In this document: in pieces, positions 6,029-51,889 of the stretch
Numbering within the stretch: position 1 is the first letter of the stretch
How the letters are laid out: each line of letters starts with the position of its first letter
Assembly: GCA_017642535.1 (NCBI GenBank)
Contig: JAGCOW010000096.1
Coordinates: forward strand, 15,428-79,427
Length of the DNA: 64,000 nt
Direction: 5' to 3'
DNA from: Bacteroidales bacterium
GTDB taxonomy: Bacteria; Bacteroidota; Bacteroidia; Bacteroidales; UBA1715
The notes under the pieces: generated by a model
Told to the model about the DNA's origin: nothing
The model's input: the letters and a program-made list of their open reading frames with translations, nothing else
The model's database searches: none
Made by a program: the position numbers and the translations under genes

Positions 6029-7009
6029 CTACAAAAATCTTACACTTTTATAAATTTTATTTTCTTTTTCTATAAACAAGTTGAAGTCATACGACAACAT
6101 AAACTCAAGATTACCAGCACTTTCGCCTCCTAATTTCGATGTTACAATATCATAAGAAAAAATTGCCTTCAAACCGTCTAATTTTGCTCCATCTTTGAAT
6201 TGAACACCGACATTTAAGGAAATATCTTGACTACTTGTGTATGAAATTCCAACGATTGCAAAGTTATTATAAATTGCTCTACAATCAAAACTTATTTGCA
6301 AATCTGATACTGTTGTTTTTAAAGTCATAGCCGGACATAACGTCCACTTCGGGCTCGATGTCTTATAATCATAACCGCAAGAAAGCCAATAATGACGCTT
6401 CAGATACTTCATTTTGCCTGAATCAAATTTCAAACTTGGTTCATTTAACTCCGTAACGGAAAATGCCGCATACAAACTACCGACTTGATAAAACGCCCCG
6501 AAGCCCAACAATAAATTTGAGAACTTCTCCTTTGAACCGATGGTCGATTCCAAATAACTATCGTTGGTACCATCAGGATACACAGCTTCACTCAAATCCC
6601 AGCCGACGGTATTCAATCCCGCACTCAACCCCAGACCCAAGCGTCCCGAACGGAGATTCAGATGATATGCATAATTCAATTTTGCGGAAACTCTTTTTTC
6701 AAATCCTTCCTTCGTCTGAGCCACCGACAAGCCTACTCCACTATTGACCGACTTGATCGGCATAGAGACGTTGAACCATGTTGATGCCGGTCCCGATTTG
6801 TCAACAAAGCCCATATATTGATTACGCACCACCAGACTCGCATTGCCGTAATCAAAAGCTCCACAAATAGCAGGATTGTACGAAGATTGATGGAACGCAT
6901 AGAGCGAGCTTCTTGGATTCAATTGTGCAAAAACGACAGAATCCATTGCAACGATACACACTATCGTCGTCCATAAAAACTTCAAAACGTACTTCAATCT
7001 CCTTTCCAT
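6029..7009 (-). CDS. porP: PorP/SprF family T9SS outer-membrane beta-barrel protein
   Basis: 326 aa with a signal peptide and beta-strand-rich alternating composition. Its position directly upstream of gldK matches the porP-porKLMN arrangement. Confidence 0.8.
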   Translation of the reverse strand: MERRLKYVLKFLWTTIVCIVAMDSVVFAQLNPRSSLYAFHQSSYNPAICGAFDYGNASLVVRNQYMGFVDKSGPASTWFNVSMPIKSVNSGVGLSVAQTKEGFEKRVSAKLNYAYHLNLRSGRLGLGLSAGLNTVGWDLSEAVYPDGTNDSYLESTIGSKEKFSNLLLGFGAFYQVGSLYAAFSVTELNEPSLKFDSGKMKYLKRHYWLSCGYDYKTSSPKWTLCPAMTLKTTVSDLQISFDCRAIYNNFAIVGISYTSSQDISLNVGVQFKDGAKLDGLKAIFSYDIVTSKLGGESAGNLEFMLSYDFNLFIEKENKIYKSVRFL

Positions 7010-7574: not shown

Positions 7575-9019
7575 ATTGATACTTTTTTATGTTTTTTTTC
7601 AATAATTTTCGACATAAATTGACTGACAAACGGTTTCAACGACGGCAATCCCTTGTCGTTCACTGCAAGATAAGTCAAATATACTCCTATTATTAATATG
7701 ATAACAATAGGATACCACATTCCTACCCACGCGCTGATAGTCGCCGCCTTCACACTCTTTTCGGCTATCATCGTGAGCACATAGTACATCAGATAAAACA
7801 AAAACGAAACGATTACGGGAACACCGAAACCGCCCTTTCTCACCAATGCTCCGAATGGTGCACCTACGAAAAACATTATCATACACACAAATCCCAACGT
7901 GAATTTTTTGTGCCATTCGATACGGAACTTATTCAGTCCTTGCTCTTGTGAGATTGTGGGTTCAACCGCCGACAACAAGAAAGATTCAGCTGTTCGAGCC
8001 GAATTCAGCGCCTTGGTAACAACAGCAAGTCTTGCTTCAGAACTCATTCCTGCATACAAAGTGTCTAAACCAACCATCACGCCAACGGAATCTTTGTTCG
8101 CCTTTGCCTTATATACATTATTAATAAAGAACTGCGTAAAACAGCGACTATTATGTCCTTTATAATTCAATCGCAAAGAATCTATCATATAATCCAGCTG
8201 CACGACATTCTGCATCTGCGAATTATGTTTGAACAATTCCACATTCGTCCGACTGAACGCATAATCTTCCAACTCGAACAAAACTTGTTGCTTGTCAAAT
8301 GAATACTGACGGAACGGACGTTTTTTGCGATACTCGTCAATACTACTTCTGTCAATCACATCTTCATACGATTCGCCTGAATACAAGGTAAGCACAAGAT
8401 ACCGCTTGTCGTCGGTAACTTTCATCGTGGCAGAATCGGCAATGATGACACTTGTATTACCAGCATTATTCCGATGATCATAAATCATCATATCGTACAT
8501 CATATTCGTTTCGGTATTTTTCGACGAAATCTTCAAACGAACTTGATCAATACCATCAAAGAATATACCTTCTTTTATATTCATTTCCGGTCGCTGGTTT
8601 CTTACATCAAACATCAACGACCAGAGCCGCAAATTAGAATACGGCAACACATTATTGGCATACACAAACGAAAATCCCATCAAGAATACATTGAATACAA
8701 TTAATGGGAGCATTATACGCGACAAGGAGACGCCCGCCGACTTTATCGCAATCAACTCGTTGGTGTCGCCCATACTACCATACGCAAATATTGACGAGCA
8801 CAACACCGCCAATGGCAACGACATTTGGAGCAATCCCATCGCCGCAAAAAAGAAGAGTTCTAATATTATCCGTAGTTCAAGTCCTTTGCCAACGAGATCG
8901 TCAATGTAACGCCACAAAAATTGCATGAGCAACAAAAAAGTCGTCACGAAAAAAATTATGACTAACGGTACCAGATATGATTTTAGAATAAATAAGTCTA
9001 ATTTCTTAATCCCCAACAT
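7571..9019 (-). CDS. LptF/LptG (YjgP/YjgQ) family LPS export permease
   Basis: 482 aa. The N-terminus KKLDLFILKSYLVPLVIIFFVTTFLLLMQFLWRYIDDLVGKG, a six-transmembrane layout and a central periplasmic domain fit this family. Confidence 0.85.
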   Translation of the reverse strand: MLGIKKLDLFILKSYLVPLVIIFFVTTFLLLMQFLWRYIDDLVGKGLELRIILELFFFAAMGLLQMSLPLAVLCSSIFAYGSMGDTNELIAIKSAGVSLSRIMLPLIVFNVFLMGFSFVYANNVLPYSNLRLWSLMFDVRNQRPEMNIKEGIFFDGIDQVRLKISSKNTETNMMYDMMIYDHRNNAGNTSVIIADSATMKVTDDKRYLVLTLYSGESYEDVIDRSSIDEYRKKRPFRQYSFDKQQVLFELEDYAFSRTNVELFKHNSQMQNVVQLDYMIDSLRLNYKGHNSRCFTQFFINNVYKAKANKDSVGVMVGLDTLYAGMSSEARLAVVTKALNSARTAESFLLSAVEPTISQEQGLNKFRIEWHKKFTLGFVCMIMFFVGAPFGALVRKGGFGVPVIVSFLFYLMYYVLTMIAEKSVKAATISAWVGMWYPIVIILIIGVYLTYLAVNDKGLPSLKPFVSQFMSKIIEKKHKKVSI

Positions 9020-26218: not shown

Positions 26219-26246
26219 CCAACCTCTGCCCCGATATGGCACACCT
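26219..26246 (+). promoter_or_regulatory. Conserved 28-nt cassette-head element, copy 1
   Basis: The sequence is CCAACCTCTGCCCCGATATGGCACACCT. It ends 30 nt before the ATG at 26277 and aligns without gaps to the four other copies. Confidence 0.8.
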
Positions 26247-26276
26247 ACATTGTTTATTTGTCGAAAAAATAAAACA

Positions 26277-27711: not shown

Positions 27712-27739
27712 CAAACCTCTGCCTTGATTTGGCATAGGT
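27712..27739 (+). promoter_or_regulatory. Conserved 28-nt cassette-head element, copy 2
   Basis: The sequence is CAAACCTCTGCCTTGATTTGGCATAGGT. It is followed 6 nt later by a perfect -7 box, TATGTTTG (27746-27753). Confidence 0.8.
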
Positions 27740-27798
27740 TGAGAATATGTTTGCGAAGTTTTTAATTTAAAAGTTGTGCCCGACACATATTAGGGATT

Positions 27799-32415: not shown

Positions 32416-32443
32416 CCATCCTCTGCCCTGATATGGCACACCT
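32416..32443 (+). promoter_or_regulatory. Conserved 28-nt cassette-head element, copy 4 (no adjacent ORF)
   Basis: The sequence is CCATCCTCTGCCCTGATATGGCACACCT. It is followed by TTCTTTTG, but only 2- to 12-codon ORFs occur before 32833. Confidence 0.75.
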
Positions 32444-32832
32444 TTGATTTTCTTTTGTAAAAAAAAATGGTATAAATATGCGACGAGATACTCAGTTTGT
32501 ACACGGATTTTTATAACTTGTTTCAATTAAGATTTAATTTTTTTAAATAAAGAGTTAATTAGATACTAACCTTGGCAACCGCATCAAAATATAACTAATT
32601 GACAATCATTCATGACCTTTTTATTTTCGGTACATAATGAAAGTCTGTAAGACTCAGAATCAGTTGTTTAACTATTTTTTTGTATGGTTATCGTAATTTC
32701 GTGTTTAGAAATTTCTATTTTTGTATAAATACTGAAAAAAATGTACCGACAGTATTTTTATAAATAAATTTTTAGTAAAAAAAATGTTTGTTTTACGCAC
32801 GCGATAGTGATGTGCTAGAAAAGGAGGCAAAA

Positions 32833-34488: not shown

Positions 34489-34516
34489 CCAACCACTGCC
34501 CTGATATGGCATACCT
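34489..34516 (+). promoter_or_regulatory. Conserved 28-nt cassette-head element, copy 5
   Basis: The sequence is CCAACCACTGCCCTGATATGGCATACCT. It is followed 6 nt later by a perfect -7 box, TATGTTTG (34523-34530), and the ATG is at 34558. Confidence 0.8.
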
Positions 34517-34557
34517 CACGTTTATGTTTGCGCCAGAAAACATAAATAATAAACAAA

Positions 34558-41550: not shown

Positions 41551-41625
41551 GGTAGCGGGAGCCAGACTCGAACTGACGACCTTTAGGTTATGAGCCTAAC
41601 GAGCTACCAACTGCTCTATCCCGCG
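41551..41625 (-). tRNA. tRNA-Met (CAT), initiator type
   Basis: The reverse complement is CGCGGGATAGAGCAGTTGGTAGCTCGTTAGGCTCATAACCTAAAGGTCGTCAGTTCGAGTCTGGCTCCCGCTACC, which is close to E. coli tRNA-fMet. It has a CAU anticodon loop (CTCATAA) and an unpaired 1:72 position (C:U). Only CC of the CCA end is encoded. Confidence 0.9.
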
Positions 41626-41761
41626 GTATATCTTTGTAAATGAACACTCGTTTTTCAACGGGGCAAAAGTACAAAATCTGCACAAAAAGTCAAGTGTTTT
41701 TATCATTATTTTTATTTATCTTTGTTTTTCTATTATCTTTGTGCCTATAATTCACAAAAAT

Positions 41762-42307
41762 ATGAGTGATACAAATCAAGAATTTGACGTGGTAAAAAAG
41801 ATGTGTTTCGACATCTTTGAGAAAAAATATGACGACTACGGAACGGCGTGGAGAATCATGCGTCCCGAGTCGTTGACCGACCAGATATTCATTAAGGCAA
41901 GCCGCATCCGCAGCATTGAGGAAAAAGGCATAGCCAAAGTTGGCGAAGGTATCATACCTGAATTTATCGCTATTGTCAATTATGGCATTATGGCGTTGAT
42001 TCAACTTGAACTAAAAGGCACCGACGCTCCCATCGACTTGCCCAAGGATATGGCTGTGGCTCTTTACAACAAGTATTACGATTCCACCAAAGAGCTTATG
42101 ACCAACAAAAACCACGACTACGGCGAGGCGTGGCGTTCAATGCGTGTAAGTTCGTTTACAGATGTAATCTTGCAAAAATTACACAGAACGAAGCAAATTG
42201 AAGACAATAAGGGAGTTACACAGATTTCCGAAGGCGTTGACGCCAATTATCAAGATATGATAAACTATTCCATTTTTGCATTAATCAAATTAGTTGTAGA
42301 AAAATAA
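41762..42307 (+). CDS. DUF1599 domain protein
   Basis: It has two repeats of the DYG.AWR.MR...TD pattern (DDYGTAWRIMRPESLTDQI and HDYGEAWRSMRVSSFTDVI). The ATG at 41762 is preferred over the GTG at 41741. Confidence 0.75.
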   Translation: MSDTNQEFDVVKKMCFDIFEKKYDDYGTAWRIMRPESLTDQIFIKASRIRSIEEKGIAKVGEGIIPEFIAIVNYGIMALIQLELKGTDAPIDLPKDMAVALYNKYYDSTKELMTNKNHDYGEAWRSMRVSSFTDVILQKLHRTKQIEDNKGVTQISEGVDANYQDMINYSIFALIKLVVEK

Positions 42308-43819: not shown

Positions 43820-45334
43820 TTATTCCTGTCGTTTTGCTTCAAGAACCTTTTCCAATTTGATTCTTTTTTCACGCAATTGCGACGCACGTTCATATTCCTG
43901 TTCCTTGCAAAGGTCGCAGATTTGTTGATTAAGTGTTTCGATTTCTTTTTCCAATTCATTGATACTCATTGAAGAGAACACTTTTTCGTCAAACCAAGAA
44001 ATAGCCACATCGTCATTAAAAGCAAACATGCCGACATTTGTGGATTTTGACAGAATGACCGACTTCAAATCCTCGCAATTCTTAAACGCATAGTCTCCGA
44101 TTTCTTCAACCGACGTTGGAATAATCACACTTGCGAGTTTTTCGCAATTCCAGAACGCACCTTCGCCAATTTTCGCAATTGAATTGGAAAGCGTCAGTTT
44201 ACTTAGTTTTTTGCAGTAATCAAACGCATAATTTTTGATTTCCACAACCGAATCAGCCATAGTCACGCTTGTCAAATTAGAACAACAGAGAAACGCGCAC
44301 TCGCCAATTTCCGTAACAGAATTAGGAATGTCAACGCTTGCGAGCGCTTCGCATCCTGCAAATGCCTCGGTGTCGATTTTGGTAACCGAATCTGGTATAG
44401 TTATGCTTGTCAGGTTTTTACAGCACGCAAACATTCTATTTCCAATTTCCGTCAATGAATTTGGCAAAACCACACTTGTAAGGTTTTCGCAGTTCATAAA
44501 CAACTGAATCCCATCAAGGTTAGTCACCGAATCGGGAATAGTTATACTTTTTAGATTTTTGCACCTCAAAAATGTAGCCCGTCCTATTTTCGTAACGGAA
44601 TTTGGTATCACCACGTTTGTTATTCCGCTATCATAAAACGCACCATCAATTTCCGTAACTGAATCAGGAATAGTAACAGTTGTAAGATTTTGGCAAAAAC
44701 CAAACGAACCAGGTCCAATTTTCTTTATCGAATTTGGAATTGTAACACTTGACAATTCCACACAGAAACTAAATACCCTTTTTCCAATTTCCGTAAGGGA
44801 ATGAGACAATGTCACACTTTTCAGCTTTTTACATTCGCAGAACGCACCTTCTTCTATTTCCGTTACGGAATCTGGGATTGCCACACTTGCTAAATTCTTA
44901 CAAAAGTAAAATGCTTCCTTTCCGATTTTCGTCACCGAATTCGGAATCGATACGCTTGTTAGGTTAGTGCAAAAGTAAAATACATGTACTTTGATTTCCG
45001 TAACGGATTCAGGAATTTTCAGTTCTATCAACCCTTCACACCATGAAAACGCACCATCCCTGATTGTCGTAACCGAATCAGGAATAACGAGGTCTGTTAA
45101 ATTTTTGCAACGATTAAACGCGTGTTCTCCAATTTCTGTCACAGAATCGGGAATGACAACATTTTTTATTCTTTTACAAGATTGAAATGCTTCCTTTCCG
45201 ATTTTCGTCACTCCCTTGGGGATTTCGTACGATTCAGGCACCAATGCACGAGTAGCACCGACCAATGTAATTCCATTTTCGTCTTGTTCAAATGATACGC
45301 CATGCGCATCTTTCCATTTTCTTGTTTCTACCAT
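43820..45334 (-). CDS. BspA-type leucine-rich repeat (LRR_5) protein with a C-terminal UVR motif and no signal peptide
   Basis: 504 aa with roughly 18 repeats of IP.SVT.IG..AF..C..L..V. The C-terminus EQEYERASQLREKRIKLEKVLE resembles a UvrB/C UVR motif. Confidence 0.8.
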   Translation of the reverse strand: MVETRKWKDAHGVSFEQDENGITLVGATRALVPESYEIPKGVTKIGKEAFQSCKRIKNVVIPDSVTEIGEHAFNRCKNLTDLVIPDSVTTIRDGAFSWCEGLIELKIPESVTEIKVHVFYFCTNLTSVSIPNSVTKIGKEAFYFCKNLASVAIPDSVTEIEEGAFCECKKLKSVTLSHSLTEIGKRVFSFCVELSSVTIPNSIKKIGPGSFGFCQNLTTVTIPDSVTEIDGAFYDSGITNVVIPNSVTKIGRATFLRCKNLKSITIPDSVTNLDGIQLFMNCENLTSVVLPNSLTEIGNRMFACCKNLTSITIPDSVTKIDTEAFAGCEALASVDIPNSVTEIGECAFLCCSNLTSVTMADSVVEIKNYAFDYCKKLSKLTLSNSIAKIGEGAFWNCEKLASVIIPTSVEEIGDYAFKNCEDLKSVILSKSTNVGMFAFNDDVAISWFDEKVFSSMSINELEKEIETLNQQICDLCKEQEYERASQLREKRIKLEKVLEAKRQE

Positions 45335-45360: not shown

Positions 45361-46263
45361 TTATTCCACATCCTTCACCAAACGGACAAATAGTTGCTCG
45401 CAACGCTTGAAGCAAGTCATTGCAACATTGTCGCAGTATAAGCAATCACAACTTTCGTCGTAACTCAAGTAACCGCCATTTGCCTCGAATTCCATGGCAC
45501 ATGCATATTCTTCGTCGTAGCCCGACGTTGACCAATATCGTCCGTAGAACTCGGCGTTGAGCGTCTCGACAGGAAGAAACACGGCTCCTTTTTCCTCCAT
45601 TTTTGCCCACCCTTCGGGCGTGAACTCATTTTCAAAAAAATATGCAGCCCGCGGTGTAAACGACGAAGGAGGAAGTTTGGTAAGACCATCGCAAGGCGGC
45701 AACGCAATCAAGCGTTCCGCGTTTTCTTTCACGCGATAATCCGCTCTTGAACCTTTGAGGTAATAATCATCGGGCAACAAAATCAAACCGTTCACCTCGC
45801 CTACGCAACCTATTGAATAGAGACGTTCGGCATCATCACGCATAAAAATCAAATATTCCCATTCATTTCGCGTCAGCGTACGCCACATTCCTGGCTGGTT
45901 TCCACCGTTTGTGATTTTGTTATACACGCCCCAGTCGGCATTGGCAAACTCACCAACCAATTTGACTTTTCCCGAACCGCCAGGAAGATAGTCTTTGCAA
46001 TCTTCGCTATAACTATTTGGTTTATACGCCTTTGCACCACTGTTCCATCCCGACGTTCCCCAGCCAAACAAATCCATCCTACAATCGGTATCCTCCGCGG
46101 CCTCATAATTTTCATCGCCAAGCGCATCGTACTGATGTTCGGCAAAACGCCACAATCCCGTACCAACCTGATACTGCAAATTACCTTGCGAGAAATACAC
46201 TTTCTTGTCATAGGCGACCGAAAACACGCCATTTGTCAAAACTCCATCTTTTTTGTCCATCAC
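45361..46263 (-). CDS. Hypothetical protein (FISUMP/TIGR02145-like WRxLTxxEWEYL motif, no signal peptide)
   Basis: 300 aa. The motifs are YFSQGNLQY, FGWGTSGW and WRTLTRNEWEYL. The family assignment is tentative. Confidence 0.4.
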   Translation of the reverse strand: MMDKKDGVLTNGVFSVAYDKKVYFSQGNLQYQVGTGLWRFAEHQYDALGDENYEAAEDTDCRMDLFGWGTSGWNSGAKAYKPNSYSEDCKDYLPGGSGKVKLVGEFANADWGVYNKITNGGNQPGMWRTLTRNEWEYLIFMRDDAERLYSIGCVGEVNGLILLPDDYYLKGSRADYRVKENAERLIALPPCDGLTKLPPSSFTPRAAYFFENEFTPEGWAKMEEKGAVFLPVETLNAEFYGRYWSTSGYDEEYACAMEFEANGGYLSYDESCDCLYCDNVAMTCFKRCEQLFVRLVKDVE

Positions 46264-46323
46264 TCGTTTTTTTTATAGTAAACAACCTATTATTTTCTTT
46301 GAAACAAAGAAAGAGAACGAGTA

Positions 46324-46338
46324 TGCGAGATTTTCGCA
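46324..46338. promoter_or_regulatory. Dyad operator-like site TGCGAGATTTTCGCA (site 1)
   Basis: It lies 61-75 nt upstream of the minus-strand ATG at 46263. In gene orientation, TGCGAAAATCTCGCA is followed 15 nt later by TTTG. Confidence 0.6.
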
Positions 46339-46502
46339 GAATGAAGATTTTTTTGGGAAAAATTTTGAGGGGGAAAATAAAAAACTCCGTTTCAAATAAT
46401 TAAAACGGAGTTGCTATTAAGACCTCATACCCATAGTGTAAATATTTTTACATTTTGAGTATCAATATTTAAATGAATAAAAGAAGATAATTTCATTATT
46501 CT

Positions 46503-47834
46503 TTATGTAAAAATCAATTCAATATCTGGATCTTTTCCTTTTTTTATTTTGTCGCGATAAAAACCTATAATTAAATCAATATTTTTCCAACCCCATTGTG
46601 TATAGTACCAATACGTGATCCCTTTTATAGTTGTTTGTTTGAAGTTATGATCAAAATTATTTATTTTTTCTTTCTCATTCTCATCATCACATACAATTAC
46701 AACATTCTGTTTCAATAATTTTTTACTTTCGATTTCTATATTTTTCTCTATATCAATTTTATGATTCTTAAACGTCCAATCTTGTGTCTTATCAAATGAT
46801 TTCACATGTACAAGAAAATCATTCCATTTTTTATTGATTGTATTTGTATCTAACCTTTCTTCTTTTATACAATATTCCAATATAGCCTCAACAAGAGCAC
46901 CTTTCCCAGGATATGTATTACCATTGAATTTATAATGGGTCTTATCTTTTGCTTTACCTAATTTCTCTATAGCAGTTGATACAGATGTAGTGTCATAGTC
47001 TAGGGTATCATCGTCCTTAAGCGCAGATAACGATAAAGTAATCAGTTGTTCATTATTCGTCCAAAAGTCAACAAGTAGTTTTCGAAGTTCATCGTTCATA
47101 GCCATAATATTATTTTGTTGTGAGTAATTTATACTTAATGCTTTAATGTATTCTTTGATAATAAAATGTTTTCTCGGTTGTATAGATTCTTCATTGAGCA
47201 ACGGAGAGAGAATCTCATCTAATATGTCTTGGTAATTGATTTGAATAAAAGATTTGCATTCACACTCAGGTTCAAGTAAATCTTTTGAAGGACGTTGAGT
47301 GAGAAAAACGAAAATACAATTTTCAGCATTATATTTTTCCGTATAATATTCATAATATCTTTTTGTCTGACCAGTGTGCTCTTTTGAATTCACCTTATTC
47401 TCAACAATCACATACAATGGTTTTTCACTATTCCTATACTTAATAGTAATTAATATATCTGACCTGCCTTTTTTCTCCTTCGTTACAGCAGAATCCTCGA
47501 GTTTTGCTTCTACATGTTCAATGAAAAAGGAAGTTGTTAGCAAACGCTTTCTTACTTTATCAGTGAAACGAGTTTTTTTGTCCTTGTATTGTCCATCTCT
47601 TTTCAGTAATAAAAGCAACAAACTTTTTATAGAGATTTCACATAATTCTTGATCTGCAAAAATCCATTTTAGAAAATTAGAATGATAGTTTTCTTTTCTA
47701 TCAACCCGAAGGATATCTAAAAAAGAAAGTTCATTGTAATATTCGTTGAGCTTTTGTACCGTTGAAGATGAGTGGTACTTTCTCAACAACTCAAAAACCT
47801 CATCGTCAGACAATTCAACTTGTTCTTCTGCCAT
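46503..47834 (-). CDS. PD-(D/E)XK nuclease superfamily protein
   Basis: 443 aa. The motifs are an N-terminal NYHSNFLKWIF and a core GRSDILI...YVIVENKVNSKEHTGQTKRYYEY (D...ExK pattern). The gene is visibly more AT-rich than its neighbours. Confidence 0.65.
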   Translation of the reverse strand: MAEEQVELSDDEVFELLRKYHSSSTVQKLNEYYNELSFLDILRVDRKENYHSNFLKWIFADQELCEISIKSLLLLLLKRDGQYKDKKTRFTDKVRKRLLTTSFFIEHVEAKLEDSAVTKEKKGRSDILITIKYRNSEKPLYVIVENKVNSKEHTGQTKRYYEYYTEKYNAENCIFVFLTQRPSKDLLEPECECKSFIQINYQDILDEILSPLLNEESIQPRKHFIIKEYIKALSINYSQQNNIMAMNDELRKLLVDFWTNNEQLITLSLSALKDDDTLDYDTTSVSTAIEKLGKAKDKTHYKFNGNTYPGKGALVEAILEYCIKEERLDTNTINKKWNDFLVHVKSFDKTQDWTFKNHKIDIEKNIEIESKKLLKQNVVIVCDDENEKEKINNFDHNFKQTTIKGITYWYYTQWGWKNIDLIIGFYRDKIKKGKDPDIELIFT

Positions 47835-47999
47835 TGTTACAAATCACAAACGGACCTCTTTTTTACATTTTTCTCTCCAACTCTCCAAACCTTGCCGAAG
47901 TCCATATAACAAAATCCGAGAATTTGAATTGTGTAAAGTTACGAAATTTTTCGAAACTTGTTTTTGCAAAAAGCATTTTTTCCTACTAGCAATCGATCT

Positions 48000-48797
48000 T
48001 TAAATATGCACCTCCGTCTGTACTATAAACCTCTTAGGATCAAGCAAGAGACCATACTGAAACGGCATACAGCATTTTGAAAAAAGCACATACATCAAAT
48101 AACAGATGCGGTGGTCGTTGAACGAAGGCTGACAAAGTTCGTCAATGTTCCAACTCCATTCGTTCAAAGGGTCTTTGTCCATGTCGGGACGTGTGTTCCA
48201 AGCTGTTTTGAGTTTTTCATAGGCAAAATCAACGAGTTCATTTCCCAATGTGTTTTCTTCATCAACATAGAAATCATAGTAGATATACGTTTCAATGTCA
48301 GAGTTTATATAGTTCGTCTTACCGCTTGCACACAGGAATTTTATATCACGCTCTACTTCATCATGTTTCTTTCGTGCTTCATCCATCAGTTTTGCAAGTG
48401 TATCGTTAAGTACCAACAACTTACGCACGTTTTCCTCTGTCCAGACAAAGGTTTCGTTCATTTTGGTCTGGCGAAGCTGTAATTTTTCCCGTATTGTTTT
48501 AAGATTTTTTGCTCTGCTTTTGGCATTGCTACTTGATCTACGCGGCCAACCCGTAGTGGAATGACTTTCTTCCCTATCGATGTAATATTCGTTGTAATTA
48601 TTGCACTTAATACTGATGCCGAACGAATCGTAAATATCCTTAAGATGGTCACGGAATGTTCGTTCCGCATACGGTTTGCAGTCGCAATTGAGCGAACATT
48701 TATCCCATTTACCCTGAATTTCCTTAAACGTAATTGGTTCATAATCAGAGATTACCTCCATGAGCCACTGCAATCGTTGAATTTGAACTGATGACAT
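48000..48797 (-). CDS. Putative winged-HTH (HTH_11/YafY-like N-terminus) regulator
   Basis: 265 aa. The N-terminal pattern is QRLQWLMEVISDYEPITFKEIQ...ERTFRDHLKDIYDSFGISI. The C-terminal region of about 170 aa is unassigned. Confidence 0.4.
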   Translation of the reverse strand: MSSVQIQRLQWLMEVISDYEPITFKEIQGKWDKCSLNCDCKPYAERTFRDHLKDIYDSFGISIKCNNYNEYYIDREESHSTTGWPRRSSSNAKSRAKNLKTIREKLQLRQTKMNETFVWTEENVRKLLVLNDTLAKLMDEARKKHDEVERDIKFLCASGKTNYINSDIETYIYYDFYVDEENTLGNELVDFAYEKLKTAWNTRPDMDKDPLNEWSWNIDELCQPSFNDHRICYLMYVLFSKCCMPFQYGLLLDPKRFIVQTEVHI

Positions 48798-48855
48798 TTT
48801 CTTAGAATTTTAAAGTTTATTTTTCTTATTACAATGCAAATGTATATAATAGATG

Positions 48856-48870
48856 TGCGAAATCTTCGCA
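48856..48870. promoter_or_regulatory. Dyad operator-like site TGCGAAATCTTCGCA (site 2)
   Basis: It lies 59-73 nt upstream of the ATG at 48797. In gene orientation it is followed 15 nt later by TTTGCATTGTAA, where TACATTTG forms a perfect -7 box. Confidence 0.65.
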
Positions 48871-48878
48871 CAGTAAAT

Positions 48879-50435
48879 TTATTTTTTTACTGCATCCTTC
48901 AGTTTTTCCCAAACTTTCACCATTGCCAAGGTATCGAGTTTACAATATTCAAGCAACGCTTTTCGAGTCGCGTCCTGCTCTTCGGGCGGCATATCCTTTA
49001 TTTTCGGGAAAATATTCATCGCGTCGCCACCATTTTGCACCCGTTCGTCCAAATTGTGATAATTCAGACTCGGATCATCTGGGAACAAGGCAGGTAACAC
49101 GCTTTTAATTGAAAATGAACCGCCCATTTCTTTTACATAATAATTGCCTTTCTGAAACGGTATCAACAAATCAACAATATGCTCTTTTATGTTTAACAAA
49201 TGTTCCGACAAATCGGGAAACAACTCGGCCAGTTCCTTAATTCTCGAACATTCAAAAGTTTTATTATATGCAACAGTACAGACATTTTTAGGAATATCCT
49301 GACATAAGCGTTCGGCAATGTCGCGAAGTGGATTTTTACCAGACTCAGCAAGAAAATCCGTGTGTTTCAGTTCTCCGCCTTCGTGTTCAATATAGTACAG
49401 CGAATATTGAAACGGAATTTGCTGATATGGTCTTGTACCCACAATGTCGGGCACCGCCTGTTGCATCGTTTCGAAATCAAGAAAATAAAGCGGATAAGAC
49501 AATGTTTTCAAAAAATCGGAAATTCCGTCTTTATTTATAAAAGTTTTGTCATTCAACGCTCCTTCCATCTGCATAATATGTATCGGATTCTCAATACATT
49601 TTGACTTTTGCAAATCTTCGTACGAAATCAGTCCTTTTCTATAATATGCTATTTTTTTCGAAAAATGCACTCTGTATAAATCAAATACTGACGGATTTGG
49701 CACGTGTTTCGCACAATAGCCCCAAAACTCGCAACCGCAGCAGTTTTCGTCAATATCTTTTACCGGTTCTTCTTCATTTGCAACTATTTTTAATGCAGCA
49801 GGCAAAAGAGTGGGAACTTTTAGATATTCGTTTTCCATTCGTTCCGCAACATCTTCAACAACAAACAATTTGGCAACATCAAGCGTTCCATCAAAGACAT
49901 AAGAATTGTCAATGTGAACGATGTATGTTCCGGTAACCTTCACGCCACATTTTTCGAGAACATATTTTTGATATGCAATGTCCGTCAAATGATAATCTTT
50001 TACTTCAGTGGAACTTTTCACCTCATAAATGGCATATCCGCCTTTTTCTTTTCTAAGAATATCTACGGCACAATAACAGCCGTGGTAACTGAATGACGCC
50101 TCACAGATATTGTCGCAACCTTCATCCAAGCATTTCTGAGTATCCTCGAGCATTTTTTTGAGATTGAGCGAACCGTCATCATTCTTTGCCGTTACCTCTA
50201 CAAAATCGCCAAACAACTGCATGGCTAGGTCACCAACTTCGTTCCCTGTTTCCATCCGTGCCATCGATGCATCATCAACTACGGCAAGTTCCGATTTATA
50301 TACCCGTAACCATAACAATTTTTCGCACGAGCAAAACGCCACGTATTTTGACTTTGATAATCCCTTGTGTGCCATATTTTCCCTCAATTTATAGTTTTCA
50401 AAGATAGAAAAGAATGTTGATTTATCCTTTTGCAT
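48879..50435 (-). CDS. DUF2779 domain protein (RecB/Cas4-like PD-(D/E)XK fold)
   Basis: The N-terminus GLSKSKYVAFCSCEKLLWL is typical of DUF2779. The ATG at 50435 (MQKDKS) or the downstream MAHKG is preferred over the TTG at 50459, which lies inside the shared promoter block. Confidence 0.7.
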   Translation of the reverse strand: MQKDKSTFFSIFENYKLRENMAHKGLSKSKYVAFCSCEKLLWLRVYKSELAVVDDASMARMETGNEVGDLAMQLFGDFVEVTAKNDDGSLNLKKMLEDTQKCLDEGCDNICEASFSYHGCYCAVDILRKEKGGYAIYEVKSSTEVKDYHLTDIAYQKYVLEKCGVKVTGTYIVHIDNSYVFDGTLDVAKLFVVEDVAERMENEYLKVPTLLPAALKIVANEEEPVKDIDENCCGCEFWGYCAKHVPNPSVFDLYRVHFSKKIAYYRKGLISYEDLQKSKCIENPIHIMQMEGALNDKTFINKDGISDFLKTLSYPLYFLDFETMQQAVPDIVGTRPYQQIPFQYSLYYIEHEGGELKHTDFLAESGKNPLRDIAERLCQDIPKNVCTVAYNKTFECSRIKELAELFPDLSEHLLNIKEHIVDLLIPFQKGNYYVKEMGGSFSIKSVLPALFPDDPSLNYHNLDERVQNGGDAMNIFPKIKDMPPEEQDATRKALLEYCKLDTLAMVKVWEKLKDAVKK

Positions 50436-50475
50436 CGTTTTTTTTTGATTACAATGCAAAAAAATAAAATGACTG

Positions 50476-50490
50476 TGCGAAATCTTCGCA
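50476..50490. promoter_or_regulatory. Dyad operator-like site TGCGAAATCTTCGCA (site 3), between divergent genes
   Basis: It shares an identical 17-mer, TGTGCGAAATCTTCGCA, with site 2 and has the same 15-nt spacing to TTTGCATTGTAA on the minus strand. On the plus strand it lies 12 nt upstream of TATTTTTG (50503-50510), which serves the gene at 50549. Confidence 0.65.
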
Positions 50491-50548
50491 TAATAGCCTA
50501 TTATTTTTGTTCCAATTCTAATGATGTTTCACAAAGAAAAATATTCCT

Positions 50549-51889
50549 ATGAGAAAAAACTTTACAATCGATGATTTGCAGTATGAGCAAATAACGGATA
50601 ATACAGTACGAGTAGCATCTTGTAAAAATAAAAACCTTACTTCTATTGCAATCCCTAATCAAATTACCGTAAAAGGATTTTTAGGGTTCAACCCCAAAAC
50701 CTACAAGGTTACAGATATTAGTAGCTCGGCTTTTAAGGATTGTACAATTCTAAAAAAAGTCGTTCTGGCTGAAGGAATAACGGAAATTTCTTACTTTGCA
50801 TTCGAAGGTTGTACTGCATTAACAGAGGTTTCTCTTCCGTCATCGTTGACATATATTAGGGGAAATGCATTCAAAGACTGTAAAAATCTGACAAACATCA
50901 AAATACCCGAAACCACCCGACATATTGGGAAAAATGTCTTTGAGGGTGATGATACACTATTGTATTCCGAGAATAATTTGTTGTTGTACAAAGATGGCTC
51001 AATCTGCTTTGGGCTCGCCGACAAAAAAAATTGTCCTTCGGAGATTGTCATTCCCGATTCTGTAAAAATCATAGCTGCAGAAGCTTTTCTCAACTGCAAT
51101 AAGCTAAAAAAAGTTACGTTTTCAAAAATTCTCACAATAATCGGTGACGAAGCATTCCGCTATTGTGAGAATCTTACCGAACTCATTTGTCCGCCCCAAT
51201 TGGAAGAAATTGGCATGGCTGCATTTGAACAATGTTACGGACTTACAAAGGTTGTTTTTCCAGAAACGCTTATAACAATTGGGGAAGATGCTTTTTTCCG
51301 ATGCCCTAAAATTTCAGGGATACGATTGCCAGATTCTGTCGTTGACATTGGTTATTTTGGCCTTGACGAATGCAGTCCGTATTGTTCTTGGGAAGTACAT
51401 ATCAGCCCCAACCATCCTTTACGCGAGGAATTAGAATATTTGGACGACCGATTGGTTGTTGACGACGAGGAAGACGACTATGACTGGGACGACGAAGGTC
51501 TTGCGAAATTAAAGGCAAAAAGCGAACAAGGCGATGCCAAAGCCCAAGATGAATTAGGTTATTATTATTGGATGGAAGAAGACGATGCGGAACAGGCATT
51601 CTATTGGTACAAAAAAGCTGCCGAGCAAGAATATCCGCCAGCAATGGCCGATTTAGGAAGATGCTATACGGGAGCATACGACGACGCTCAAATTGATTAT
51701 TCCAAAGCCATTCAGCTTTTTACCAAGGCCGCAAATCTCGGTTGCGGCAATGGTTACTATGGCTTAAGCGAATGCTACGCAAACGGTTGGGGCGTTGAGA
51801 AAAATTTGGAAAAAGCAAAAGAATACTTCGCAAAAGCTATGGAGTTAGGTTGCGAAAGCGATGAACCACCATATGAGGAAGAAGATTAA
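50549..51889 (+). CDS. BspA-type LRR protein with C-terminal Sel1-like repeats and no signal peptide
   Basis: 446 aa. LRR_5 repeats are followed by an acidic linker and Sel1/SLR repeats (AEQGDAKAQDELGYYY, AAEQEYPPAMADLGRCY, GWGVEKNLEKAKEYFAKA). Confidence 0.8.
   Translation: MRKNFTIDDLQYEQITDNTVRVASCKNKNLTSIAIPNQITVKGFLGFNPKTYKVTDISSSAFKDCTILKKVVLAEGITEISYFAFEGCTALTEVSLPSSLTYIRGNAFKDCKNLTNIKIPETTRHIGKNVFEGDDTLLYSENNLLLYKDGSICFGLADKKNCPSEIVIPDSVKIIAAEAFLNCNKLKKVTFSKILTIIGDEAFRYCENLTELICPPQLEEIGMAAFEQCYGLTKVVFPETLITIGEDAFFRCPKISGIRLPDSVVDIGYFGLDECSPYCSWEVHISPNHPLREELEYLDDRLVVDDEEDDYDWDDEGLAKLKAKSEQGDAKAQDELGYYYWMEEDDAEQAFYWYKKAAEQEYPPAMADLGRCYTGAYDDAQIDYSKAIQLFTKAANLGCGNGYYGLSECYANGWGVEKNLEKAKEYFAKAMELGCESDEPPYEEED

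Follow-up and report, generated by a model that had tools for sequence, protein, structure and literature searches.

Organization of the locus

The window, by which we mean the whole 64-kb stretch of DNA analysed, contains the dyad TGCGA-N5-TCGCA at 46324, 48856 and 50476 (pattern scan), in each case between genes, and these three sites head the transcription units listed in the first part of Table 1. The 504-aa protein behind site 1 had also been labelled 'UVR' in a preliminary description of this DNA, a label that Pfam did not recover. No dyad of its own was found in the window scan for the PD-(D/E)XK cargo gene, and the identity of the cargo gene varies among close relatives. Site 1 itself is kept in the related loci L001, L011, L020 and L043/L051. 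We prefer ATG 50375 as the start of the DUF2779 gene because the listed start, TTG 50459, overlaps the -7 box; ATG 50375 is likely the true start, and the orthologue in locus L098 begins M-A-H.

Table 1. Positions of dyads, promoter elements and genes in the window
Feature	Position	Strand	Remarks
Site 1, 19-bp dyad, core TGCGAAAATCTCGCA at 46324-46338	46322-46340	-	Promoter of the 300-aa/504-aa LRR gene pair
Site 1 -7 TTTG	46305-46308	-	15 nt past the 15-mer core, 48 nt before ATG 46260
300-aa protein, matching no known family	45361-46260	-	First gene after site 1
504-aa BspA-type LRR protein	43820-45334	-	Second gene after site 1; holds coding dyad matches 44132 and 44339
PD-(D/E)XK (PDDEXK_4/PADLOC PDC-S26) cargo gene	46503-47834	-	Variable slot
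265-aa regulator candidate	48000-48797	-	Residues 1-84: wHTH common with wHTH-WYL-WCX proteins
Site 2, perfect 8+3+8 palindrome TGTGCGAAGATTTCGCACA	48854-48872	-	Promoter of the 265-aa wHTH gene
Site 2 TTTGCATTGTAA (-7 TTTG and start region)	48829-48840	-	TTTG to ATG 48797, 43 nt
Site 3, 19-bp dyad	50474-50492	.	Centre of divergent promoter pair: DUF2779 (minus), LRR-Sel1 (plus)
DUF2779 promoter TTTGCATTGTAA	50449-50460	-	15 nt from site 3 dyad core
LRR-Sel1 -7 TTTG, within TATTTTTG	50506-50509	+	Also 15 nt from site 3 core (50476-50509)
DUF2779/Cas4-like PD-(D/E)XK nuclease gene	48879-50375	-	
LRR_5 and Sel1 protein gene	50549-51889	+	Driven from site 3 plus side
Class-2 site TGCCCCGATATGGCA + 15 nt + TTTG	26227-26260	+	Before 194-aa gene, AAA_21/AAA_15 ATPase operon
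Class-2 site TGCCTTGATTTGGCA + 15 nt + TTTG	27720-27753	+	Before 70-aa gene, ADP-ribosylglycohydrolase operon
Class-2 site TGCCCTGATATGGCA + 15 nt + TTTG	32424-32457	+	Upstream of SMC_N/AAA_21 508-aa gene
Class-2 site TGCCCTGATATGGCA + 15 nt + TTTG	34497-34530	+	Before MreB/Hsp70-like 343-aa gene

A 19-bp dyad at a constant distance from the -7 box

The pattern TGCGANNNNNTCGCA occurs in exact form five times in the window, where 0.11 occurrences would be expected. Two of the five, at 44132 and 44339, fall within the 504-aa LRR reading frame, where they are a product of repeated C-E-x-L-A codons, and we rejected them as regulatory sites. Comparison of 13 non-redundant sites revealed a conserved unit of 19 bp, T-n-TGC-N9-GCA-n-A, whose outer T(-2) and A(+17) are invariant. 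This frame followed by 15 nt and TTTG occurs eight times in the window (0.25 expected) and six times in 83 kb of sequence chosen by protein homology without use of the pattern (0.86 expected), the relaxed search patterns having been drawn up in part after early instances were known. All eight window occurrences are confined to two accessory islands, and the window scan found none at the housekeeping promoters. The three dyads originally described are borne out more strongly than was first claimed. An element at 47941-47955, described as a degenerate variant, is not a member: it lacks the TGC/GCA invariants, has no TTTG closer than 27 nt and is part of a different repeated element.

The preliminary description had read from the sequence that all three intergenic dyads, taken in minus-strand orientation, are separated from a downstream TTTG by exactly 15 nt, and that sites 2 and 3 have TGTGCGAAATCTTCGCA and TTTGCATTGTAA in common. 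Both readings hold; the 15-nt spacing is common to four promoters, since site 3 counts on both strands, and the 12-mer TTTGCATTGTAA of site 2 is identical at site 3 and at position 8921 of locus L104. When spacings from 8 to 23 nt were scanned over 147 kb, we found 17 matches at exactly 15 nt and one match each at 10, 12, 13 and 22 nt, all four being reverse-strand readings of dyads already counted. The 17 gene-oriented sites with this identical distance span several genera and two half-site classes.

The dyads lie in promoters, as had been proposed, with start codons 43-85 nt downstream; in the wider site set, a start codon follows every site in the correct orientation at 25-107 nt. With transcription starts taken from consensus only, we infer that the dyad occupies the place of the Bacteroidetes -33 element, at about -38 to -24 if the start is a few bases past TTTG. 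The missing -33 TTTG is uninformative, because ordinary TAnnTTTG promoters of the window also lack it.

The sites of the preliminary description lie at 46-50 kb. The system extends further: four additional sites of the form TGCC-N7-GGCA (26227, 27720, 32424 and 34497) stand in front of operons in a second accessory island. The window would hold two specificity classes, TGCGAA-N3-TTCGCA in the 44-52 kb island (class 1) and TGCC-N7-GGCA in the 26-36 kb island (class 2). Half-sites change symmetrically between them (TGCGA/TCGCA versus TGCCA/TGGCA), with no change in spacing. Of 21 sites, 17 have complementary bases at positions 4 and 12 (C-G in nine, G-C in seven, A-T in one), and together with the invariant T(-2)/A(+17) this pattern suggests the signature of a dimer.

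A winged-helix protein with an exchanged C-terminal domain

The island with class-1 sites (44-52 kb) is the one that encodes the 265-aa protein. The winged helix assigned to the N-terminus of this protein is well supported: it shares 67-75% identity with the N-termini of wHTH-WYL-WCX proteins, and the AF2 model has an H-b-H-H-b-b topology with pLDDT 75-88. The WYL and WCX domains are absent and a different domain stands in their place, with residues ~105-265 forming a helical hairpin and a small α/β domain that is uncharacterised and also occurs as stand-alone proteins. The protein is probably a derivative that kept the wHTH and had its WYL-WCX sensor swapped for another domain, rather than a canonical family member.

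We confirmed the dyad in the promoter of the 265-aa gene itself, and observed it likewise in the locus of a 61%-identical homologue (L011), where it is kept while its flanks have diverged. At the regulator promoter of a 68% homologue (L001) the dyad has decayed, and in L020 and L043 one half-site of site 2 reads TGCAA. Among proteins linked to class-1 sites, four of five carry the recognition helix RTFxDH, the fifth (P0014) having RTFHDN; two class-2-linked proteins have RSFHHH or RTFNNW.

Among seven other Bacteroidales locus types, five have dyads of this frame beside their genes for wHTH-WYL-WCX regulators. In L098 a site is present at the promoter that heads the AAA-WYL-DUF2779 operon, in L007 at the AAA-WYL promoter (with 16-nt spacing), and in L101 both at a divergent AAA/WYL promoter and at that of a second WYL gene itself. 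In L104 one site lies in the sigma-SbcDC promoter divergent from WYL and another serves an RmuC operon, while five sites surround the WYL gene of L110. The site scan found none in the WYL loci L096 and L103. Judging from the sequences compared, the dyads are part of a wider conserved promoter design of gut Bacteroidales, in which a palindrome, 15 bases and TTTG occur near WYL-type regulator genes.

Alternative explanations and mode of regulation

Sites 2 and 3 share 17 and 12 identical bases, and the element at site 1, a ~115-bp repeat, travels with cargo genes, as would be expected if the dyads were functionless relics of promoter duplication inside one island. We consider this highly improbable, given that the 13-nt spacer between the identical blocks agrees at just six positions, and that unrelated promoters, both in other genera and in the second island of the window, show the frame and spacing again with different sequence. 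We also hold it very unlikely that the dyad works through hairpin formation in nucleic acid, be it as a terminator, as an attenuator or as a site of single-strand recombination for cargo swaps, and not as a protein operator. Its folding does beat shuffled sequences (z -2.6 to -4.5), further nested inverted repeats occur in Type-A promoters, the DUF2779 stop immediately precedes site 2, which the terminator scan flagged, and L020 and L043 carry the site 1 element twice, around a cargo gene, cargo being variable in close relatives. The stems, however, are just 5-8 bp and lack a U-run; no co-oriented gene lies upstream of sites 1 and 3, and a real terminator (46383-46412) precedes site 1. Most related sites are non-complementary at positions 5-11, so that many would form no hairpin, an Rfam search matched no family, and the constant TTTG distance ahead of start codons is a promoter feature.

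A constant spacing to the downstream box could also reflect an alternative sigma factor, reading a dyad half as a -35-like element and TTTG as a -10-like one, and the site at 5758 of L104 precedes a sigma-70-family gene in the SbcDC operon, where sigma autoregulation is possible. Yet sigma reads a single strand-specific element, whereas here both halves are conserved and co-vary symmetrically with an invariant outer T/A, and the dyad of site 3 serves both directions. By what is established for sigma-70 promoters, the 11-15 nt from the right half to the -7 box are too short for a -35/-10 pair of that type. A sigma gene was found neither in the islands of the window nor at loci L098, L101 and L110, and we regard this explanation as very unlikely. 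Considerably more plausible, if still doubtful, is the classic autorepressor of the preliminary description, in which the 265-aa protein would bind the dyad, block sigma at -33 and repress itself and its neighbours until a signal arrives, much as CapW and BrxR do. The palindrome overlaps promoters that include the regulator's own and the divergent pair at site 3, nuclease or defence-like genes adjoin, and CapW and BrxR are wHTH-WYL-WCX repressors on ~20-bp palindromes at defence-system promoters (PMC11662680). An operator, however, needs mere promoter overlap, while 17 sites keep one and the same distance to the -7 box, which suggests a positional contact with polymerase; CapW is released through a WYL sensor, which the 265-aa protein does not have; and the TA of TAnnTTTG is missing from several -7 boxes, which fits activator-dependent promoters. 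What stands of the autorepressor proposal are the promoter dyads, the wHTH, the dyad at the regulator's own promoter and the family linkage; repression cannot be deduced from position.

We favour, as the reading somewhat better than even, that dimeric winged-helix proteins of one Bacteroidales family (canonically wHTH-WYL-WCX) bind DNA at the dyad, and that it is more than a local repressor operator. Class-1 dyads, including that of the 265-aa gene, would be bound by a dimer of the 265-aa protein, by a canonical WYL paralogue from another part of the genome, or by both; the class-1 binder here could be such a paralogue encoded beyond the window. The bound regulator would contact RNA polymerase at fixed geometry, making these promoters dependent on it, and the WYL-less 265-aa protein might place these promoters under another input or else serve as a competitor. 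We stress that this explanation is weakest on the sign of regulation. Position does not imply a repressor. A fixed -7 distance across unrelated promoters, genera and half-site classes matches the WYL activators DriD and PafBC (PMC13004042, PMC8635444), which the geometry resembles more closely than it does a classic repressor. By this analogy we rank an activation-type geometry slightly ahead of simple repression; it counts against this ranking that the defence-island-linked family members CapW and BrxR are repressors.

Comparison with known systems

The non-canonical LexA SOS boxes of Bacteroidetes (GGA-N5-TCC and CTAA-N5-TTAG; PMC8565304) are likewise dyads with an N5 spacer in DNA-repair promoters of the same phylum. 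They differ in sequence and in their regulators, which are S24 peptidases with a CI-like domain; both LexA groups are reported absent from Bacteroidales (PMC8565304), and the island showed no S24-type gene.

Homodimeric CapW and BrxR bind, as wHTH-WYL-WCX dimers do, ~20-bp palindromes, located in their own and neighbouring accessory or defence promoters (PMC11662680). The likeness extends to a bidirectional promoter in the case of CapW (compare site 3) and to variable neighbouring cargo. They are repressors released by single-stranded DNA, unlike the 265-aa protein in having WYL and WCX. To our knowledge, a strict fixed distance to the core promoter is not a described feature of CapW or BrxR.

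The 'sigma adaptation' promoters of mycobacterial PafBC (PMC8635444, PMC11804915) are hybrids in which a fixed, regulator-specific upstream element replaces the -35 and the normal downstream element is kept; a WYL-family regulator and a DNA-damage regulon are further likenesses. The PafBC motif is asymmetric (tGTCgg-N10-tA-N3-T) and read by a heterodimer, in contrast to the symmetric 19-bp dyad described here, which would suit a homodimer. Finally, the WYL activator DriD of Caulobacter crescentus (PMC13004042, PMC10853764) shares the N-terminal wHTH, DNA-damage and repair genes in its regulon, and target sites that lie over the upstream promoter element (-35) at an equal distance from the downstream one (-10) in every regulated promoter. 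Motif, phylum and promoter grammar differ (-33/-7 here, -35/-10 for DriD), as does the lack of a WYL domain in the local 265-aa protein. Contact with polymerase at a fixed geometry, as proposed for the Bacteroidales promoters, is the mode known for DriD and PafBC, both of which activate in response to single-stranded DNA.

A palindromic site at a fixed distance from the -7 box

A symmetric 19-bp site stands at a fixed place before the -7 box, lies in front of genes, is linked to one family of regulators and changes its half-sites symmetrically. The 44-52 kb island encodes an LRR protein, a 300-aa protein without family, a PD-(D/E)XK nuclease, a 265-aa protein, a DUF2779/Cas4-like nuclease and an LRR-Sel1 protein. 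The class-1 pattern of this island, TGCGA-N5-TCGCA, has 5 matches in the window against 0.11 expected. The preliminary description had placed such dyads at three promoters with a common spacing, and we find both as described: on the minus strand, each of the three intergenic dyads is followed by 15 nt and then by TTTG. Sites 2 and 3 have in common one 17-mer plus TTTGCATTGTAA, and site 2 is a perfect 8+3+8 palindrome. The reported proximity of site 3 to the plus-strand -7 box of the LRR-Sel1 gene proves to be the same arrangement, with 15 nt and TTTG also on the plus strand, within TATTTTTG, so that a single dyad serves two divergent promoters. Site 2 precedes the gene for the 265-aa protein, our candidate regulator, and sites 1 and 3 precede its neighbours; the class-1 TTTG boxes lie 43-85 nt upstream of the start codons.

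Two exact matches fall within the 504-aa BspA-type LRR gene, where they stem from codons of repeated C-E-x-L-A motifs in the BspA-type repeats; such coding matches inflate naive motif counts. The "degenerate variant" at 47941 could not be retained as a member: the invariant TGC/GCA is absent, and the closest TTTG stands at a distance of 27 nt. This variant is instead part of another repeated element, present twice in a close relative. This conserved element of about 55 bp, GTTTCGAAAAATTTCGTAACTTTACACAATTCAAATTCTYGGATTTTGTTATATG, lies upstream of the PD-(D/E)XK gene and of two other cargo genes in that relative (L020), and it resembles a portable cassette that supplies promoters to cargo genes.

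At the DUF2779 gene, the mechanical ORF start (TTG 50459) overlaps the -7 box, and the orthologue in the related locus L098 begins M-A-H, which corresponds to the window ATG at 50375. There is another TATCTTTG box 31 nt upstream of this ATG, and the gene may thus have a proximal promoter in addition to the dyad promoter; a two-promoter layout is also seen at the topoisomerase III genes of three related loci (L031, L045 and L056).

Site 1 and the topoisomerase III promoters, which we term type A, carry nested inverted repeats immediately 3' of the dyad, with fold z-scores of -3.1 and -5.3. The outer stem (ACTCGTT...AACGAGT in the window, ACTAAGT...ACTTAGT in L031) has a common start position, and the inner stem, TTTCTTTG-N3-5-CAAAGAAA, includes the -7 TTTG. 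The duplicated copy of this promoter before the cargo gene of L020 and of the related locus L043 is without the outer stem. The repeats might serve as a second operator or as a leader structure, or have some other role.

Positions of the dyads and associated features in the window and in related loci
Feature	Locus	Position	Remark
Site 1	window	46324	class 1
Site 2	window	48856	class 1
Site 3	window	50476	class 1
TTTGCA boxes	window	48835-48840; 50455-50460	
Dyad matches in LRR gene	window	44132-44146; 44339-44353	coding
Class-2 sites	window	26227; 27720; 32424; 34497	TGCC-N7-GGCA
265-aa protein gene	window	48000-48797	minus strand
DUF2779 start region	window	50375-50459	
55-bp element	window	47896-47960	
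55-bp element	L020	6130-6184; ~6804-6870	
Type-A promoter	window	46255-46345	minus strand
Type-A promoter	L031	7345-7420	
Slot cargo	window	46274-47999	PD-(D/E)XK
Slot cargo	L020	4066-6899	three other genes
Slot cargo	GCA_016648615 contig		two genes
Slot cargo	L001	7803-8854	one gene
Slot cargo	L011	1269-1414	none
Island boundary	window	43814	end of L020 similarity
tRNA-Met	window	41551-41625	
DUF1599 (Nmad1) gene	window	41741-42307	
Stretch without convincing ORF	window	32458-32787	
PyrG-leader match	window	46374-46448	below threshold
Site of AAA-WYL-DUF2779 operon	L098		upstream; TGCATAAATTTCGCA-15-TTTGCATGGTA
Site of AAA-WYL genes	L007		upstream; 16-nt spacing; SbcCD and RecQ adjoin
14-bp palindrome	L007	9912-9925	TGCAAAATTTTGCA; also in L092-L094
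Sites of L104	L104		before sigma-SbcD-SbcC operon (divergent from WYL); before RmuC operon
Sites of L101	L101		AAA/WYL divergent promoter; second WYL gene's own promoter; S-AdoMet-lyase cluster
Five sites around WYL gene	L110		TGCCA-N5-TGGCA; before AAA, RecA-like/PLD, Nmad2/3, others
Class-2 promoter with Nmad2 and Nmad3 genes behind	L110	3117-4558	
Site of topoisomerase III gene	L031, L045, L056		separate lineage; upstream; TGCGAAAATTTCGCA-15-TTTG
Tandem ATAATTG, 8 copies	L096	~7880-7940	

The island and its variable slot

The same island occurs in a sheep-rectum Bacteroidales MAG (L020, 96% identical) and in several metagenome contigs. The regulator gene and the 300-aa gene are separated by a slot whose cargo differs from one close relative to the next and mostly defies annotation. 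The site 1 element, about 115 bp, is duplicated upstream of the cargo gene in L020 and L043, at the cassette borders, and this suggests that slot cassettes are gained and lost through recombination between repeated promoter elements. L011, with a protein of only 61% identity, keeps the regulator-promoter dyad intact; L020 and L043 show a single substitution in it (TGCAAA), and in L001 it has decayed.

PADLOC found no complete known anti-phage defence system; it returned only a PDC-S26 candidate for the PD-(D/E)XK gene, Cas4-like matches for DUF2779 and weak IetA-like matches for the AAA partner of WYL genes in related loci. Megablast gave no match pointing to a phage or plasmid origin of the island, and viral contig scans yielded no related sequence. 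Just to the left of the island boundary lie a tRNA-Met gene and a DUF1599 (Nmad1) gene.

A wider family of sites

Further loci were fetched through WYL paralogues, that is, selected by protein and not by motif. In four of them (L098, L101, L104 and L110) a palindrome again precedes the regulator and adjacent accessory genes. In these protein-anchored loci (83 kb), a relaxed pattern occurs 6 times, where 0.86 would be expected; none of 200 shuffles had more than 4. Alignment of 13 non-redundant sites gives the consensus T-n-TGC(G/a)AA(R)ATT(Y)CGCA-(Y)-A, in which the outer T and A are invariant. Over spacings of 8-23 nt, the 19-bp frame has 17 matches at 15 nt; the single matches at 10, 12, 13 and 22 nt each represent an already counted dyad read on the reverse strand, and the sole exception is the 16-nt spacing in L007. 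The distance from the regulator site to the downstream core element is therefore constant in the sense that applies to DriD and PafBC. Across all sites, 25-107 nt separate the promoter box from the start codon.

Within the window, the general frame TGC-N9-GCA plus 15 nt plus TTTG has 8 matches against 0.25 expected: the four already known and four class-2 sites, TGCC-N7-GGCA, at the head of operons in a second accessory island (26-36 kb), which encodes ABC-type ATPases, an ADP-ribosylglycohydrolase and an MreB/Hsp70-like protein. The frame was found at no housekeeping promoter in the window. These broad patterns were refined during inspection of the data and cover about 200 kb of Bacteroidales sequence, and the genome and metagenome scans used the strict pattern. 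Between one class-2 promoter (32424) and the gene for a 508-aa SMC_N/AAA_21 protein lie about 330 nt without a convincing ORF, perhaps representing a long leader or else a small RNA.

The strict pattern TGCGAARATYTCGCA-N15-TTTG was found in 31 stretches among 185,579 species genomes and in 49 among the JGI metagenomes, mostly in unrelated taxa and roughly at the estimated chance rate, which makes the exact class-1 core a narrow one. The related stretches are only the island relatives (L020, L043/L051) and the topoisomerase III upstream region (L031, L045, L056), and a filter on the 19-bp flank retains exactly these two groups; the wider family was recovered only via the protein-anchored loci.

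In 17 of 21 sites the bases at positions 4 and 12 complement each other (C-G in 9, G-C in 7, A-T in 1). The recognition helix reads RTFxDH in regulators next to G-C sites, except in the regulator P0014 (RTFHDN), and RSFHHH or RTFNNW in the two regulators next to C-G sites. That helix residues track the half-site class is only suggestive, because the sample is small.

Several features accompany the WYL genes. The palindrome TGCAAAATTTTGCA, perfect over 14 bp, lies upstream of the WYL paralogue by SbcCD/RecQ; its half-sites are TGCAAA, the half-site produced by the point mutation at site 2 of L020 and L043, and its spacer is one base shorter than that of the 15-mer core. A gene for a 577-607-aa AAA+ ATPase, with weak IetA/CDC48-like matches, is the constant neighbour of the WYL gene in L007, L098, L101 and L110, co-oriented upstream or divergent and with a dyad in its own promoter; the window island is without it. 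In L096, a locus without the dyad, the tandem ATAATTG repeats lie directly upstream of the WYL gene.

The 265-aa candidate regulator

The first 84 residues of the 265-aa protein are 67-75% identical to the N-terminus of Bacteroidales WYL + WCX proteins (PF13280+PF25583), and AF2 predicts the order H-b-H-H-b-b there (pLDDT 75-88). Foldseek gave weak matches (E>0.3) to winged helices throughout, and the protein thus has the N-terminal wHTH found in wHTH-WYL-WCX proteins. The protein matches no Pfam family as a whole; neither Pfam, NCBIfam nor PADLOC detects a WYL domain (PF13280), which the paralogues P0006 and P0004 do match, and a WCX domain (PF25583) is likewise not matched. Alignment to the WYL paralogues fails beyond about residue 84. 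The C-terminal 160 aa are confidently predicted (pLDDT 85) as a helical hairpin and a small a/b domain, which matches no Pfam family and no PDB fold; it also exists as stand-alone proteins of 150-210 aa, and none of the loci fetched encodes such a protein. No match came from searching PDB sequences with the family profile, and the 84-aa wHTH as sole query found one fragment and nothing more. With a DNA-binding head shared with WYL regulators, ending at about residue 84, and a different tail, the protein is a chimera. The symmetric 19-bp site and the predicted long hairpin are compatible with a homodimer of this protein on a palindrome of about 20 bp. The window encodes no second member of the wHTH family; the genes for the class-2 regulator and for any canonical class-1 paralogue must be located elsewhere in the genome.

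Mode of action and alternative explanations

Dimers of wHTH-WYL-WCX proteins bind palindromes of about 20 bp, and repression by CapW and BrxR lasts until they are released by single-stranded DNA (PMC11662680). In the activation mode of DriD and PafBC, transcription calls for a regulator bound to single-stranded DNA. From the sequences, we infer that a dimer of the wHTH family would bind the 19-bp site, which spans about -38 to -24 at inferred positions. The invariance of the spacing across unrelated promoters, genera and two half-site classes appears a better match to the activation mode of DriD (PMC13004042) and PafBC (PMC8635444) than to that of CapW/BrxR. For this reason, and because about half of the -7 boxes are without TA (the TA of TAnnTTTG is present in 2 of 4 class-1 promoters in the window and in about half of all sites), a site that contacts polymerase is favoured, though only slightly, over plain repression. 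The TTTG itself was imposed by the search pattern and carries no evidential weight, and we rejected the missing -33 TTTG as an argument for activation, since ordinary TAnnTTTG promoters of the window lack it too. The 265-aa protein, without WYL and WCX, would couple the class-1 promoters to another signal via its novel tail; alternatively, it might be a competitor of a canonical paralogue. The -7 box is TTTGCA in 10 of 21 sites, including some in L098, L101, L104 and L110; this is equal to the right half-site TTYGCA and 21 bp, or two helical turns, past the dyad's right half; this could be a third half-site or a simple start-site preference.

That the dyad block is the recognition sequence of an alternative sigma factor is unlikely, given that both dyad halves are conserved and covary and that one dyad, site 3, serves both directions. 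A hairpin is about as unlikely an explanation: the stems are short, the inner positions are unable to pair in many related sites, and the dyads have no Rfam match, a tRNA alone passing the gathering threshold and the PyrG-leader match falling below it. A relic of promoter duplication is excluded, as the design recurs elsewhere with different sequence.

Comparison with known systems

The non-canonical LexA SOS boxes of Bacteroidetes (GGA-N5-TCC and CTAA-N5-TTAG, with an S24-peptidase regulator) were considered and set aside; the motif differs, and both regulator groups are reported absent from Bacteroidales (PMC8565304). Palindromic operators of WYL regulators and fixed-geometry promoters of WYL activators are already known. 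In the literature searched, we did not find descriptions of the 19-bp motif and its pairing with the Bacteroidetes -7 box, of two specificity classes in one genome, of a WYL-less chimera, or of a linkage of the motif to SbcCD, RmuC, DUF2779 and variable islands; that literature reports the order to be without SOS regulators and describes no damage-responsive or defence-island regulator for Bacteroidales.

We tentatively put forward, as a possibility we consider rather doubtful in its entirety, that Bacteroidales, without LexA and the non-canonical LexA of other Bacteroidetes, run a DNA-damage or phage-alarm response via wHTH-WYL-WCX regulators bound to a dyad of 19 bp in place of the -33 element, 15 nt from the -7 box. 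The regulon would comprise repair genes (SbcCD, RmuC, the DUF2779/Cas4-like nuclease and the topoisomerase III region) and variable defence-like islands; TGCGA and TGCCA half-sites would define separate circuits within one genome, and a new input domain would come with WYL-less derivatives, the 265-aa protein among them. The analysis yields a 19-bp motif that is precise and has a fixed promoter geometry, together with a candidate regulator family and a list of target operons, all directly testable in cultivable gut Bacteroides relatives, and in gut metagenomes the motif could help to predict which accessory and defence genes are inducible.

The system resembles CapW/BrxR in having a palindromic operator at the promoters of the regulator and of adjacent accessory genes. 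If the fixed geometry does signify activation, the promoter reprogramming of DriD and PafBC would extend to a phylum whose sigma factor and promoter grammar both differ.
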